Sequence record: PQ850593.1
Reading direction: 5' to 3' (one strand)
From: Escherichia phage AidaStucki_Bas93
DNA length: 64,000 bases
The notes beneath the pieces are model-generated. The model ran no database searches. It was not told the DNA's origin and worked only from the letters and a program-made list of their open reading frames with translations. This document shows positions 5,412-27,371 of this stretch, piece by piece. Position numbers and translations under genes: made by a program. How positions within the stretch are numbered: the stretch's first letter is position 1; each line of letters begins with the position of its first letter.

Positions 5412-7289
5412 ATGTCTAGAGAATTAATGCCCAAATCTGGGATAATGATGCCTCATGTGGTAGTTACTAGAGATGCCGCAGTTGTGGGTGTGTCTACAGT
5501 TGATGGCGTGGCAGGTGCTGTTAATTTAACAGATAAATATCTACAAAAGTCTGATGCTGAAGCAACATATCAAACGAAAGCAGAAGGGGCTACTAAGCAA
5601 TATGTAACCGATGCTATTAACCCTATTATGACAAATGCTCTGTTTAAAGATGACCCTTTTGTCAATAATGATACACCTATCCGCTCTGGTGGCGGTAATG
5701 GTGTTGAATCAGTGGATATGATTAAAGTTACCCCCGAGAACTCTATCAAACTAGGGAGTTATGCTTCTTCTGTTCAGGGGGTTGAGATTCACTCTGCTGG
5801 TCGTGTTCAGGTTGTTGATCAGAATGATGGTGGAGTAGAAACTAAGTATCCTATCTATTCTAAAAGGTATCGTCCTGAGATTGAGGATTTGCCTTTCGCT
5901 GCAATTGGTTCTTATGTCAAGGATTCTCAAGGTCGTACTGTTGGTGTTACTCGTACAGGGATTAACTCTGATATCAAACAGCTTACTCAGAAGGTGACTT
6001 TCACTCAACCAGTTACTGTTCCTGATGCAGTTGGAGATTATGATGCAGTTACTTTGAGACAGCTTCGTAACAGTGGTGGTGGCTCTGGCGGTCCTACCAT
6101 GAGCGGTATTTCTAACTTTGGTATTGGTGATTTTCATTTACGTGACAGCCGTGCTTTCATTCCCGCTTTTGAAGTAACCTCTGATGGACAGCTTCTCAGT
6201 CGTTCAGAGTATCCAGACCTTTGGGCTTATGCTCAACTGTTGACACCTATCTCGGATGCTGATTGGTTGGCTGATCCTCAGAAACGTGGTAAATACTCAA
6301 CAGGTGATGGTTCTACTACTTTCCGTGTCCCTGACCGAAATGGTGTCCAATCAGGTTCAATTAAAGAGTTGTTTGGGAGAGGGGACGGAGGATCTTCCTC
6401 TAACAATGGTACAATCTACGAAGCAGCAGCGCCAGACATTGGAGGGGCAGCAGCTGGCGTATCTCAAGGTACTTATGCGCAAATTTTTGGTACAGCATCA
6501 AGAGGTGCGTTTTTCGCAGATAACGGTTTATATCCACAAGGTCAAGGTGAAACTATTCCGGGCGGAGCTGGTGCTACAGAAGGTCGTCAGAATACTCTGA
6601 ATTTCCTAGCAAGTAGATCTAATGCTACTTATGGGAGATACGGTGTTTCAGATAACATCCTCCCTCGTAACTTTATTGGTGTTTGGACTATCCGTGCGCA
6701 TGGTGGTTTTACGGCAGCTAACACTTCTTGGTCTGTGATTAATAGTGGCACTACTGTACCTCCACCTAACGCGGTTGTTTACGGCGGTCAAGTTTCCAGT
6801 GAGTACAGAGTCAACGGTGCACTACGTGTAGGCTCAAGCATCATGACGCGCTATACGGAAAATGGAGAAATTATCCCGATTGTTCGTGTTACTGATAACC
6901 GTACAGGTACGTCATCGTCTTATGACAGACCACTCCGTGATGCTTATCAGGTTACCAATACTGGAACAGGGGGTCGGTCACTTAACATCGTTAAAAACAA
7001 TACTCGCGGTTGGCAAACTATATCGTGCCGTTTTCCTGTAACATGCCCTCCTAACTCAGCTACAAACTGGAACTGGAATTTTGTAAGCGAAGGAGCAACA
7101 CCATTCGTCAACTATCCTGGGATATCGGCTAATGGGGAAAGTAGTAACTCTGCGGACTGGTTGGTTCAGGTGGAAGGTATTACAGGTAGTCAGTGTGCAG
7201 GCTTTATTCACAACAAATCATCAGCAACTTTGGTAGTATGGGTGATGTTAATCGCACACGGCATAATTGCCTCAACCTGGGAGGGATAA
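5412..7289 (+). CDS. tail fibre / tailspike-like protein
   Basis: 625-aa ORF in the structural block; Gly/Ser/Thr-rich; N-terminal region resembles fibre attachment domains; no catalytic motif recognised. Confidence 0.55.
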   Translation: MSRELMPKSGIMMPHVVVTRDAAVVGVSTVDGVAGAVNLTDKYLQKSDAEATYQTKAEGATKQYVTDAINPIMTNALFKDDPFVNNDTPIRSGGGNGVESVDMIKVTPENSIKLGSYASSVQGVEIHSAGRVQVVDQNDGGVETKYPIYSKRYRPEIEDLPFAAIGSYVKDSQGRTVGVTRTGINSDIKQLTQKVTFTQPVTVPDAVGDYDAVTLRQLRNSGGGSGGPTMSGISNFGIGDFHLRDSRAFIPAFEVTSDGQLLSRSEYPDLWAYAQLLTPISDADWLADPQKRGKYSTGDGSTTFRVPDRNGVQSGSIKELFGRGDGGSSSNNGTIYEAAAPDIGGAAAGVSQGTYAQIFGTASRGAFFADNGLYPQGQGETIPGGAGATEGRQNTLNFLASRSNATYGRYGVSDNILPRNFIGVWTIRAHGGFTAANTSWSVINSGTTVPPPNAVVYGGQVSSEYRVNGALRVGSSIMTRYTENGEIIPIVRVTDNRTGTSSSYDRPLRDAYQVTNTGTGGRSLNIVKNNTRGWQTISCRFPVTCPPNSATNWNWNFVSEGATPFVNYPGISANGESSNSADWLVQVEGITGSQCAGFIHNKSSATLVVWVMLIAHGIIASTWEG

Positions 7290-23499: not shown

Positions 23500-23751
23500 G
23501 ATTAAATCATAATACTGAATAATGTCAGAGAGTTTGAACTCTCGAATCTCATCTTTCTCTATATCTATCGCTGTCATAATCCAACAAGGTTTGCCACCGT
23601 TATGAAAACGGGAGCTAGCAACGGAGGTTCGGAGTGGAATAACGGACCGGTCAGCAACCTCGCCTCTCCAATTGCGATAGCGAAAGCGAAGCACTTGTTG
23701 CGTAGATTTTTGATCATCATTCATTTCCTTTCTTGAATTGTTTTCTTGCAT
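23497..23751 (-). CDS. hypothetical protein
   Basis: 84-aa ORF, last gene of the minus-strand unit. Confidence 0.35.
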   Translation of the reverse strand: MQENNSRKEMNDDQKSTQQVLRFRYRNWRGEVADRSVIPLRTSVASSRFHNGGKPCWIMTAIDIEKDEIREFKLSDIIQYYDLI

Positions 23752-24118
23752 CGTTTTCCATCTTTGTTTTTAGTTTATGACAAGGGTCTTTACACAGAAC
23801 CTGAAAACCTTCTTTCTCACACAGAGCACGAGAGATGATTTCATCCCAAGTTGCTTCATGGTCAAGAGGTACTATAGGCTCTATGTGGTCAATAGCCATA
23901 TCCTTTACAGGGTGGTCAGAACCACACATGGCACACCTAAAGTGCATTGCCAGTCTACCTGTCTTTGGATTAATCTTCTGCTCTGTCTTGGCTTCTGCTA
24001 GTGCATCGAACATGGGCTTCCACTTTCTAGTCAGAGAACGAATCCCTGACTTAATGAAAGAGTTGTAACGAGCTTCAGTCCAAGTTCCACTACAGCGTGT
24101 CTTCTCAGACTTCGCCAT
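23717..24118 (-). CDS. HNH endonuclease
   Basis: Cys pair and His-Asn-His core (CAMCGSDHPVKDMAIDHIEPI...CHKLKT). Confidence 0.55.
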   Translation of the reverse strand: MAKSEKTRCSGTWTEARYNSFIKSGIRSLTRKWKPMFDALAEAKTEQKINPKTGRLAMHFRCAMCGSDHPVKDMAIDHIEPIVPLDHEATWDEIISRALCEKEGFQVLCKDPCHKLKTKMENDARKQFKKGNE

Positions 24119-24297
24119 AATCAGCTTCTTCCCAAACTCGTTTGTTTACACGATGACTCACTTTGCCCTCACGAGGAATACGACCTGTCCTCTGATCAAA
24201 CAGTTGATGTTTAATCTTTTGATCTTTACGAGATTCACGATTGGAGGAGTTTTCATCATATGAACGATAATCAAATTTACCCATTATAATATCCTTA

Positions 24298-25116
24298 TTA
24301 CCAAGATTTATCTAACCATGTCCAGTCGAACAGGTCTTCCGGAGCCTGACCAACAAAGAGAAGCCGAGCATTCTCAAGCATTTTCTCTTCATCTTCAGTA
24401 TCGAACTTCTTATAATATTCCATTCGTACTATATGATACATGGTCCACTTATCTGTAACCCCAGCCAACAACTTAGCTGCTGCTTTCTTCCCTATCCCTT
24501 GACGTCGAAGCTGGAGCTTACCGCCCCACATCACTTCTTTACGTTCACCACATCCGGGAATATTATCTGTTCCATCTCCAATCAGCATCTGATAGAAGAA
24601 ATTTTGCCATGAAACTAAATCAGATACGTAGTGAGGAGGAACCTCTTTTTGTCTTTCTCCACAAGCCCAACGGTAATGCCATCCGGGAGTTATTAACAAA
24701 TCTTTGTCTCTAGTACAGATGATAGTGTTCTTATCTCTACGTTGCCTTTCAGCTAGTGCATCATCAGCCTCTCTCCCAAATACATCTATGTATTCATACT
24801 TACCTTTAATATAATCACCGACATTTTGCCAGTGAAAAGGTCTTTCTCCGGGAGGTCTGTTTGCTTTGTAGTCTTGCTGCTTAGCAACATCGAAACGGAA
24901 GTTACCGCCTTCGCTGAAGTAGAACACAACCTTACTGCAACCTGAGCGAGCAATGATAGTATCTATCTTGTACTGAAGTCGTTCAATCATGAAATTATAA
25001 TCAACTGGAACACGTCCTGTGTCAAGAAAGGGATGCTCCTGAGTAAGGGCACCCACTTCATATCGAAGAACATCTCCGTCCACAATCGCTACTTCTGGAT
25101 AAGATATATCACTCAT
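24298..25116 (-). CDS. 5'-3' exonuclease / flap endonuclease (FEN family)
   Basis: FEN motifs AIVDGD, YKANRP, EADDALA, TRDKDLL, GDGTDNIPG; start at ATG 25116 after SD GGAGGaaatc. Confidence 0.7.
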   Translation of the reverse strand: MSDISYPEVAIVDGDVLRYEVGALTQEHPFLDTGRVPVDYNFMIERLQYKIDTIIARSGCSKVVFYFSEGGNFRFDVAKQQDYKANRPPGERPFHWQNVGDYIKGKYEYIDVFGREADDALAERQRRDKNTIICTRDKDLLITPGWHYRWACGERQKEVPPHYVSDLVSWQNFFYQMLIGDGTDNIPGCGERKEVMWGGKLQLRRQGIGKKAAAKLLAGVTDKWTMYHIVRMEYYKKFDTEDEEKMLENARLLFVGQAPEDLFDWTWLDKSW

Positions 25117-25552
25117 GATTTCCTCCATGGTGTCGGATAAGGTGACAATTAGCACAGAGCATGACACATTTATCTAACTCTGCCTTAAGTTTAGGCCAGT
25201 ACCGATAGTATGAAGGGTTTTCGTCTTTTGTTTGTTCATCCAGATGATGGAACTGCATAACACAAGGTGGGTATTCTTTTTTACAATCTAAGCAAACACC
25301 TCCCATGTATTCTATTGCTTTTATCTTAAGATCTCTATTTGCCTTATTAGCAACCTCTTGCCGTCTTTTTCTATTGGCAGCATACCAAGCTCTTTTCTTT
25401 TCTGCGGTACAAATCCTACAAGTTCCAGTAACACCCTTAGTACACATCTTATTGGGGTGATATTCTGTTATGGCTTTTTCAACCCCACAAACGTTACACA
25501 CCTTAGTATCAGCATCCACTATAGCTACTTCAGGGAGCTTAACGTCTTCCAT
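25109..25552 (-). CDS. HNH homing endonuclease
   Basis: Zinc-binding Cys pairs and CANCHLIRHH; N-terminal 13 residues duplicate the FEN N-terminus (see findings). Confidence 0.65.
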   Translation of the reverse strand: MEDVKLPEVAIVDADTKVCNVCGVEKAITEYHPNKMCTKGVTGTCRICTAEKKRAWYAANRKRRQEVANKANRDLKIKAIEYMGGVCLDCKKEYPPCVMQFHHLDEQTKDENPSYYRYWPKLKAELDKCVMLCANCHLIRHHGGNHE

Positions 25553-25553
25553 A

Positions 25554-26077
25554 TTATTCTCCTAATAACTTACGAATTTCAATACGGAAATTATCATACT
25601 CTTCAGGGTATTCAAACCCACATTCAAGAAGAGCATAGTGAACAACCTTCAGCAAATCCTGAACCTTATTCTTATCTTTGTGTCGATAAGCATATTTGAT
25701 CATGTTGGTTTGTTGAAAGTTCAACTGAGGGTTTGCATGATAAAACTCGATAGGTTGAATCTTCTTGCTATCAGGGTTATAGTGGGAACCTCCCACCATA
25801 GAAACTAATGCTGGGTTACCTTGAGATGCCATTTCTAACTTCTCCGTGTGGTCATGTGAGTAGTCTACTGGAGAGGTTTTGTTACCAGTAATTTTAGGTA
25901 AAATCGCTCTAACTGTTTCTATGTACTTACCGCCATCAACATTAATTTGAAACTCCACAAGTTCATCCTGTAGTTCATACCCTGATAAGCTTGATAGTTC
26001 CTCTAGCTCGTCTCTGAGGAAGTTTGTGTGCTTTCTTTGGGTTGCAAGCGCTTTCTTTAAAAGAACTATTTCTTCAC

Positions 26078-26087
<10 letters not shown>
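25554..26087 (-). CDS. DUF3310-family phage protein with N-terminal coiled coil
   Basis: C-terminal pattern GGSHY...PIEF...NMIKYAYRHKDKN...DLLKVVHYAL matches my recollection of DUF3310. Confidence 0.5.

Positions 26088-27371
<1,284 letters not shown>

Follow-up and report, generated by a model that had tools for sequence, protein, structure and literature searches.

The window, meaning the whole 64,000-nucleotide stretch of DNA analyzed here, comes from Escherichia phage AidaStucki_Bas93 (PQ850593.1), a phiEco32-like podophage (Kuravirus, Gordonclarkvirinae). Within it, an open reading frame (ORF) for an HNH endonuclease of 147 amino acids (positions 25109-25552) lies directly upstream of the gene for FEN, a 5'-3' exonuclease of 272 amino acids (24298-25116) recognized from the ORF list, PHROG and profile matches. 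All genes around this pair lie on the minus strand, as do all window features given below, and the best nucleotide matches of the region are kuraviruses with about 93% identity. The two proteins begin alike, the HNH ORF with MEDVKLPEVAIVDAD followed by TKVCNVCG and the FEN ORF with MSDISYPEVAIVDGD followed by VLRYEVG. We conclude that the region most probably holds a homing endonuclease gene of the free-standing HNH kind, which lies in frame within its own target, FEN, after codon 15.

The HNH ORF consists of a leader of 15 residues (L1, 25508-25552) and an HNH core (residues 16-147). L1 matches HNH-less kuraviruses and represents the resident first 15 FEN codons, now the N-terminal leader of the endonuclease. 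Its ATG (25550-25552) is served by the native FEN Shine-Dalgarno sequence AGGAG (25559-25563); phage Paul has this sequence ahead of its FEN ATG as well, with an annotation as ribosome-binding site. The mobile cassette proper comprises 436 nucleotides (25072-25507) and contains, in order, HNH core codons 16-147, the stop codon, an internal Shine-Dalgarno sequence, an ATG and L2 (25072-25116), a recoded duplicate of FEN codons 1-15 (MSDISYPEVAIVDGD) that was imported and is shared with phage ECBP2. L2 gives the present-day FEN its start codon and DxD motif. At its 5' end the cassette lacks any start signal for the endonuclease; at its 3' end it provides the Shine-Dalgarno sequence GGAGGA, an ATG overlapping the HNH stop and the 15 recoded leader codons. 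As read from the sequence, GGAGGA (25121-25126) is built by Gly-Gly codons near the HNH C-terminus, with GGAGG 5 nucleotides upstream of the FEN ATG, and this GGAGGA-type arrangement recurs in ECBP2, in contigs L016 and L263 (L numbers are our locus labels) and in Salmonella phage PKM.Hi.22.6. The two ORFs overlap by the 8 nucleotides ATGAGTGA (25109-25116), which hold both the FEN ATG (restart at 25116) and the HNH TGA (25109-25111), the stop arising from L2 codons 2-3 (AGT GAT). This overlap mirrors the native overlap of the upstream gene with FEN in Suseptimavirus, such as ATGTCTGA in phage SU7.

Both proteins were assigned with the markers expected of their families. The HNH protein matched phrog_2255 (HNH endonuclease, E = 1.1e-39), and its AlphaFold model (mean pLDDT 91.6) displayed the beta-beta-alpha-Me fold of HNH (His-Me finger) endonucleases, including the His, Asn and His of the catalytic site and Cys pairs that bind zinc; the HNH motif and zinc ligands are invariant in 70 homologues. 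The folded part starts at residue 16. Residues 1-15 have no secondary structure in the model, with pLDDT of about 60 over residues 1-10, and the leader is thus predicted to be an unstructured tail. A Pfam search with the HNH protein returned nothing significant. FEN matched the phrog_107 exonuclease family (E = 2.9e-64), with weak Pfam matches to 5_3_exonuc_N and 5_3_exonuc. Neither the single FEN protein nor the HNH profile had a significant match among PDB sequences, while a FEN profile (A2) matched the 5' nuclease of Taq polymerase (1TAQ, E = 9e-4), Xni and 9l56 (5'-3' exonuclease family protein). The EADD, DKD and GD..DN motifs aligned in these matches and are invariant in A2. The protein was accordingly assigned to the FEN/5'-3' exonucleases (PIN-like, Pol I 5' nuclease family), whose marks are conserved carboxylate motifs (N-terminal D, EADD, DKD, GD.TDN) and an H3TH region. 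The motif I-V-D-x-D-V-L-x-Y appears to resemble the strand on which Pol I-type 5' nucleases bear their first catalytic Asp, and FEN Asp13 is probably equivalent to Asp18 of the Taq motif L-V-D-G-x-x-L-x-Y.

L1 and L2 agree at 10/15 amino acids and 27/45 nucleotides, with a longest exact match of 8 nucleotides. The first-pass annotation had put the identity at about 73% over 30 nucleotides encoding PEVAIVD(A/G)D, with differences mostly at third positions. Both statements are fair: 21/27 nucleotides match over these nine codons, and 5/6 differences occupy third positions. Local alignment of the HNH and FEN proteins scored 60 (BLOSUM62), a value reached by 0/2000 shuffles of the HNH protein (29.5 +/- 4.4).

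Origin of the two leader copies

The comparison with FEN loci lacking the HNH gene, which the first-pass annotation had proposed, places the insertion point directly after FEN codon 15. About 100 related Gordonclarkvirinae phage records match the region, and nearly all are without the 436 nucleotides, their matching spans being shorter by exactly that length. These HNH-less relatives start FEN with MEDVKLPEVAIVDAD followed by VLRYEVG. Paul, phiEco32 and MN03 have FEN directly after the upstream gene, starting with ME(D/E)VKLPEVAIVDAD followed by VLRYEVG. The earlier proposal that a homing-type HNH gene had inserted into the 5' end of FEN, leaving the FEN N-terminus present twice, was borne out in outline.

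A sensitive nucleotide search with positions 25100-25560 as query identified which copy is resident. In more than 20 HNH-less kuraviruses the upstream-gene/exonuclease junction matches L1 and 8 bases upstream of it (25509-25560) at 100%; L1, its ribosome-binding site and its ATG are therefore the resident FEN start. Against the Paul leader L1 matches at 42/45 nucleotides. Homology to naive genomes stops after codon 15 and picks up after L2 at GTTCTTCG, which delimits the foreign segment as 25072-25507. FEN retains the length it has in HNH-less relatives (272 amino acids), and the gene is about 93% identical in nucleotides to kuravirus FEN genes. The first-pass annotation was thus right that the HNH ORF is read from a FEN initiation region, and had the roles of the copies reversed: the HNH ORF uses the original start, identical to that of HNH-less relatives, and FEN uses the imported copy.

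L2 matches native kuravirus leaders at only 25-27/45 nucleotides. No native leader matches it exactly, the best being that of SU7 (37/45 nucleotides, 13/15 amino acids), from which it differs among other changes by a Ser codon switch, TCT to AGT; native Suseptimavirus leaders have TCT at Ser2. The leader of HNH-less SU7 (L011) reads MSDVIYPEVAIVDGD, and its last 12 nucleotides, GTGGACGGAGAT, are identical to those of L2. The closest relatives of SU7 carry GTGGATGCAGAT (DAD) at this position. SU7-like phages may be the source of L2, or the SU7 leader may be the 'hit-and-run' footprint of a repair event templated by L2 without gain of the HNH gene.

The only HNH body match of the 25100-25560 search was in ECBP2 (97.9%), a Suseptimavirus, thus of another genus, with a whole genome about 61% similar to that of phiEco32 (PMC9965538). 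In ECBP2 the cassette occupies the same codon and is identical at 430/436 nucleotides (98.6%), including 45/45 in L2, whereas the FEN bodies of the two phages are 76.3% identical and the first 18 nucleotides of L1 about 65%. ECBP2 L1 (MPDVIYPEVAIVDAD) and 30 upstream bases are in turn identical (L1 45/45) to those at the start of FEN in TH42 and TH34, which lack HNH. The cassette is also carried by L261 and L262, two kuravirus contigs from metagenomes (426/436, 97.7%; L1 45/45, L2 44/45). The element is therefore present at one precise site in the window, ECBP2 and L261/L262 and absent after codon 15 in about 100 records, and it is more alike than its flanks, as expected of horizontal transfer; by these comparisons the cassette has moved between genera. 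Because L2 is shared across genera while L1 is local, the duplication was not made at the insertion site, and the element brings its own leader copy. The partial target duplication at insertion suggested by the first-pass annotation fails on the same observations, namely an L2 that is 45/45 identical in ECBP2 and 44/45 in L261/L262 but at most 37/45 identical to native leaders, beside a lineage-specific L1. No co-conversion tract was detected downstream of L2 in the window, where kuravirus-type sequence resumes within 5 nucleotides.

The gene upstream of the element encodes a DUF3310 protein (Pfam DUF3310) of 177 amino acids (25554-26087), and its stop codon comes just after AGGAG. Counterparts of this gene are modular. 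The window and Paul combine a common N-terminal part with a DUF3310 C-terminus (175-177 amino acids, annotated 'nucleotide kinase'), phiEco32 joins the same N-terminal part to a P-loop deoxynucleoside monophosphate (dNMP) kinase (297 amino acids; L002 2043-2936), and ECBP2 has the dNMP kinase alone (L004 1946-2545), not DUF3310; the flank upstream of FEN is thus not conserved among cassette carriers. A second HNH gene lies at 23717-24118 (133 amino acids; phrog_3106, E = 2e-38). All three relatives inspected for annotation retain this gene, and phiEco32 has a further HNH gene (phi32_31) inserted beside its counterpart. A 'terminase small subunit' is listed around 23717-24118 in some matching records.

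Leader-fused endonucleases and interrupted FEN genes in related loci

A search of 5.8 billion proteins (E <= 1e-10) returned 229 homologues of the HNH protein, and N-termini were classed in the best 111. A FEN-type N-terminus (M..LIDxD) precedes the first CxxC in 66 of these, and their junctions comprise more than 50 different sequences. In another 31 the protein has its own short N-terminus, and 14 belong to neither class. Among the 14 and the 31 are several N-termini that resemble shortened leaders, such as MQAL followed by TKV. The first-pass annotation had named HNH relatives lacking the N-terminal segment as grounds for refutation. Such relatives exist (the 31 of 111) but are a minority, and their genes are also directly upstream of FEN. 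Indeed, HNH preceded FEN directly in every genomic context opened, usually with overlapping stop and start codons, and the junction position varies over about 8 codons among homologues. A second IMG/VR scan and a metagenome scan with an HNH alignment (A3) added almost nothing new among the matches listed.

Individual loci repeat the design, each with its own leader. The kuravirus-like contig L016 has a 59%-identical HNH allele at the same site, with L1 MEEVKLPEVALVDAVI followed by TKIC and a FEN start containing PPEIAIIDSDVLRY. L263 has L1 MEDITLPTLAMIDAD and L2 MSDITLPKIATIDGD and retains the ATGAGTGA overlap. In PKM.Hi.22.6 (L006) the HNH protein starts with MRILID followed by TKTC, and FEN then starts with MRILLDAD; L017, L037 and L249 follow the same pattern. 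Aeromonas phage BUCT695 (L005 2001-2228) keeps a FEN-like leader on an HNH protein cut to 75 amino acids by an internal deletion that removed the second zinc ribbon and the helical linker. ECBP2 (L004) has Tyr at HNH residue 129 (C129Y), a Cys that is invariant in 70 other homologues. Both are decaying copies. Across these sequences the leader-fused design is common and widespread.

In the L1/L2 pairs of PKM.Hi.22.6, L017 and the window, nucleotide identity is 60-79% and amino acids are kept, while codon families of six-fold degenerate residues are often swapped (Arg CGT/AGG, Leu CTT/TTA and CTC/TTG). These swaps could reflect selection against L1/L2 recombination or against nuclease recognition, or merely different lineage origins.

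Fourteen related loci with this HNH gene (L160 with a different ORF in its place) showed a further peculiarity, absent from FEN of the window phage: an insertion of 4-8 nucleotides breaks the FEN ORF at 0-3 codons past DxD, beginning with a stop codon in 13/14. The insertion is TAGAT between GAT and AT(T/C) in L159, L250, L251 and L259, TAGGT in L164, TAGTC in L160 and L255, and TAGC between CG(T/A) and TAT in L253 and L254. L007 and L018 have CTG followed by TGACTA, the cultured Vibrio phage Phriendly (L008) reads ATT CTT TGA C CTA with TCTTTGA as its insertion, L252 has CGACC between TTA and CGC, and L019 has TGAAGGTC. The interruptions lie at about 1905-1950 in L007, 1912-1960 in L008, 1470-1510 in L159, L164 and L160, 1950-2010 in L250-L255 and 6320-6360 (reverse strand) in L259; L018 and L019 are also labeled L148 and L176, respectively. 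No such insertion is present in about 73 HNH-less FEN loci from IMG/VR or in the HNH-less relatives of Phriendly, IME271 and KIT05.

In the 13 interrupted loci checked, all but L259, the part of FEN past the insertion is still a complete ORF, 251-285 codons long; the FEN body of L259 has 255 codons. Synonymous sites are saturated in 13 interrupted loci, and dN/dS where computable is 0.07-0.24, a sign of purifying selection. About half of the interrupted genes have the same codon, or a synonymous one, immediately ahead of the insertion and immediately ahead of the point where coding resumes, giving take-off/landing pairs GAU-UA-GAU, CUG-UGA-CUA, CUU-UGA-C-CUA and CGA-CC-CGC, such that a hop would restore the exact wild-type protein. 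CUG-UGA-CUA is the 'stop-hop' configuration of synthetic constructs, for which a 2016 review knew of no natural occurrence (PMC5009743). We regard the interrupted genes as candidate natural ribosomal hops or frameshifts tied to the homing endonuclease; alternatively, they may reflect recurrent inactivation of FEN. Our literature search found no description of interrupted phage FEN genes. For the loci with TAG plus two nucleotides, readthrough of the HNH stop into an HNH-FEN fusion was rejected because the product would be without the first catalytic Asp. The idea that L1/L2 pairs are less diverged in loci with a micro-insertion also failed (71-79% identity versus 60-78% in loci without). A DNA pattern scan for the TAGAT insertion yielded one new locus (L259) and four chance matches; as it missed the known L159, such scans are not exhaustive.

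L160 (about 1381-1470) differs in that the ORF upstream of FEN was unmatched by HNH queries. Its C-terminal sequence, ending in FKTKQEAKDVAIKARKLYHGSFAYIG, looks like an AP2-type DNA-binding end. The ORF nevertheless shares the tail that overlaps the FEN leader, the TAGTC insertion that comes next is that of L255, and one endonuclease may have been replaced by another at the same site.

Alternative explanations

Two related copies flanking an HNH core might also arise in situ, if the 5' end of FEN were duplicated locally, in tandem or as the target-site duplication of a staggered cut, with HNH between copies that then diverged. The middle of L2 in the distant relative L263, closer to its own L1 than the L2 of the window is, fits such an origin. 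L2 nevertheless remains the same in ECBP2 (45/45) and in L261/L262 (44/45) while L1 follows each host lineage, and the asymmetry between an L1 that is 100% identical to naive kuravirus leaders and an L2 that is 60% identical to L1 does not suit divergence in place. We therefore judge in-situ origin quite unlikely and largely refuted. A transposon-type target-site duplication was rejected as well, the repeats being 45 nucleotides long and only 60% identical, with the downstream copy common to genera and the upstream copy local. That the two N-termini resemble each other by chance or convergence, a thought invited by the shortness of the repeat (15 codons), is vanishingly improbable and already refuted by the shuffled alignments (0/2000), by the identity of L1 to native FEN starts and by recurrence of the pattern in many lineages. 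An in-frame position at a catalytic-site codon is typical of introns and inteins, and intron endonuclease ORFs joined to the preceding exon are known from organelles, all of which would fit a former group I intron or intein in FEN that held the HNH gene and has left only a remnant. The 436-nucleotide insert is filled by the ORF and L2, however, a stop codon closes the HNH ORF, FEN has an ATG at which it restarts and intein blocks are absent, making such a remnant very unlikely. A group I intron was rejected for want of a ribozyme match in 24200-26200 and because FEN has its own Shine-Dalgarno sequence and ATG, and an intein because of the TGA at 25109-25111 and the FEN restart at 25116. An Rfam scan of 24200-26200 (E <= 1) found no intron family and only a weak Alpha_RBS match across the HNH start (25529-25630; 19.5 bits versus a gathering score of 38, E = 0.11), which we take as chance.

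The HNH protein could instead be a domesticated partner with a conserved function alongside FEN, perhaps in replication or recombination, its FEN-derived peptide being a functional module. Leader fusion is indeed widespread (66/111 homologues), and the gene is always directly upstream of FEN and translationally coupled to it. Domestication sits poorly, though, with the sporadic presence and absence of the gene among near-identical genomes, with a leader that tracks host FEN and not HNH phylogeny, with junctions varying over about 8 codons and 31/111 leaderless homologues, with the predicted disorder of the leader and with decayed copies (75 amino acids in BUCT695, C129Y in ECBP2); we consider it unlikely. 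Several points also weigh against the homing element that we favor. It is rare in cultured Gordonclarkvirinae, ECBP2 being the sole carrier among about 100 records. Given the resemblance of mid-L2 to L1 in L263, repeated homing may not account for the whole pattern, some of which may stem from old vertical co-divergence or from gene conversion between L1 and L2. We infer homing itself, the target site and the immunity mechanism, and frame conservation and the lack of an internal ribosome-binding site are what point to the L1 ATG as the probable HNH start.

Homing model and relation to known elements

In the model of a homing endonuclease gene embedded in FEN, the insertion point, codon 15, is the end of the catalytic-site motif IVDxD. 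Since the 5' end of the cassette continues the L1 frame, the nuclease would be expressed from the FEN ribosome-binding site and ATG with a 15-residue FEN-derived tail, and since L2 is in frame with the resident FEN body, full-length FEN of 272 amino acids is still made. During mixed infection, the HNH enzyme would cut or nick FEN alleles lacking the element near codons 13-18, around the DxD/VLRY codons, and double-strand-break repair from genomes carrying it would copy the cassette. L1 would stay recipient-derived because the left crossover falls inside the leader. The occupied allele would be immune, with L1 parted from the FEN body and an L2-body junction unlike the naive site; 7/27 bases before the junction differ between L2 and the native Paul leader, including a change of Ala14 to Gly. 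The junction and the micro-insertions of related loci are all found within 0-3 codons of the end of DxD. With both homology arms in conserved FEN, the element could move between phages with different upstream genes. Imprecise deletion of the cassette would remove the FEN start, which favors retention, and with a longest exact L1/L2 match of 8 nucleotides, clean excision by recombination is unlikely. More tentatively, HNH-FEN cassettes could constitute a large undescribed homing family that resides within the first codons of its target gene and protects itself, in the window by a recoded leader; many marine relatives have in addition the FEN insertions of 4-8 nucleotides.

Elements that interrupt a gene and restore it from a diverged duplicate of the displaced segment are known from phage 21 and e14 at icd and from phages and islands that integrate in tRNA genes. 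The cassette likewise carries a diverged replacement of the displaced segment, but those elements use integrases and att sites and replace 3' ends, whereas here a nuclease would drive the process and the 5' end and translation start are replaced. Those endonuclease ORFs of organellar group I introns that are fused in frame to the upstream exon are translated from the host gene start, with host-exon residues at their N-terminus. The HNH ORF shares the fusion to N-terminal host-gene residues; the intron ORFs need RNA splicing, whereas here there is no ribozyme and restoration occurs in DNA through a second leader and start. The HNH endonucleases of FelixO1-type phages (phrog_2255) are of the same protein family, with two CxxC zinc ribbons, a helical linker and an HNH motif; the more distant members inspected (35-41% identical) lie elsewhere, for example in the tRNA gene cluster of Pectobacterium phage P7_Pc.

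T-even phages harbor free-standing endonuclease genes as promoter-less cassettes with overlapping ORFs and with host signals inside the endonuclease gene (PMC2988022). Like these mobA-E and segA-G homing genes (HNH and GIY-YIG; 'intronless homing'), the present element is a promoter-less nuclease cassette in or beside a conserved DNA-metabolism gene, is sporadic among relatives, has an overlapping start and stop suggestive of translational coupling, and holds host-gene expression signals inside the endonuclease ORF, which favors retention (PMC2988022). T-even elements, however, either occupy intergenic positions or divide a gene so that it yields two polypeptides, whereas here the ORF is fused in frame to the target's 15 codons, a replacement leader is supplied and the target protein stays whole. 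The word 'duplicat' does not occur in the review of the T-even genes, in which we looked for leader duplication (PMC2988022). MobE of Aeromonas phage Aeh1 is similarly an HNH gene within coding sequence, that of nrdA, an essential gene of nucleotide metabolism, and occupies a functionally critical site in it (PMC2988022), but there nrdA is split into two polypeptides that reassemble; in the window no protein is split and 15 codons are supplied twice. T4 mobA travels with a gene 60 sequence thought to guard against its own cleavage, with the protein still made (PMC5009743; bioRxiv 10.1101/2022.08.31.505936). In both cases an HNH homing gene is accompanied by a protective sequence in the adjacent target gene, the protection here being presumptive. 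T4 relies on a 50-nucleotide untranslated gap bypassed by ribosomes, with the gene also split, whereas the window has a recoded leader that is read normally. Marine loci with stop-initiated insertions of 4-8 nucleotides come closer to the T4 case, their decoding being hypothetical.

Homing endonucleases are known to sit in coding sequence either by self-splicing, as in introns and inteins, or by splitting the gene. The FEN-embedded cassette points to a third way of doing so without destroying the target, in which the element seizes the target's translation start and supplies a replacement N-terminus. We found no description of leader duplication, or of leader takeover and replacement, in the literature, and the design is apparently a new, undescribed architectural form of free-standing homing endonuclease gene. 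For annotation, the shared N-terminus is a marker of the element, and 'HNH endonuclease' genes with such a fused leader should not be taken for packaging HNH genes. For work on recoding, the interrupted FEN genes, including that of Phriendly, are directly testable stop-hop candidates; if ribosomes hop or shift over the inserts, they would be natural short 'stop-hops' and a second, independent counterpart of the T4 mobA/gene 60 bypass cassette. For the phages themselves, placement of both homology arms in one conserved gene may explain how the cassette crosses between genera that differ in their upstream genes, and dependence of host-gene expression on the element would favor its retention.

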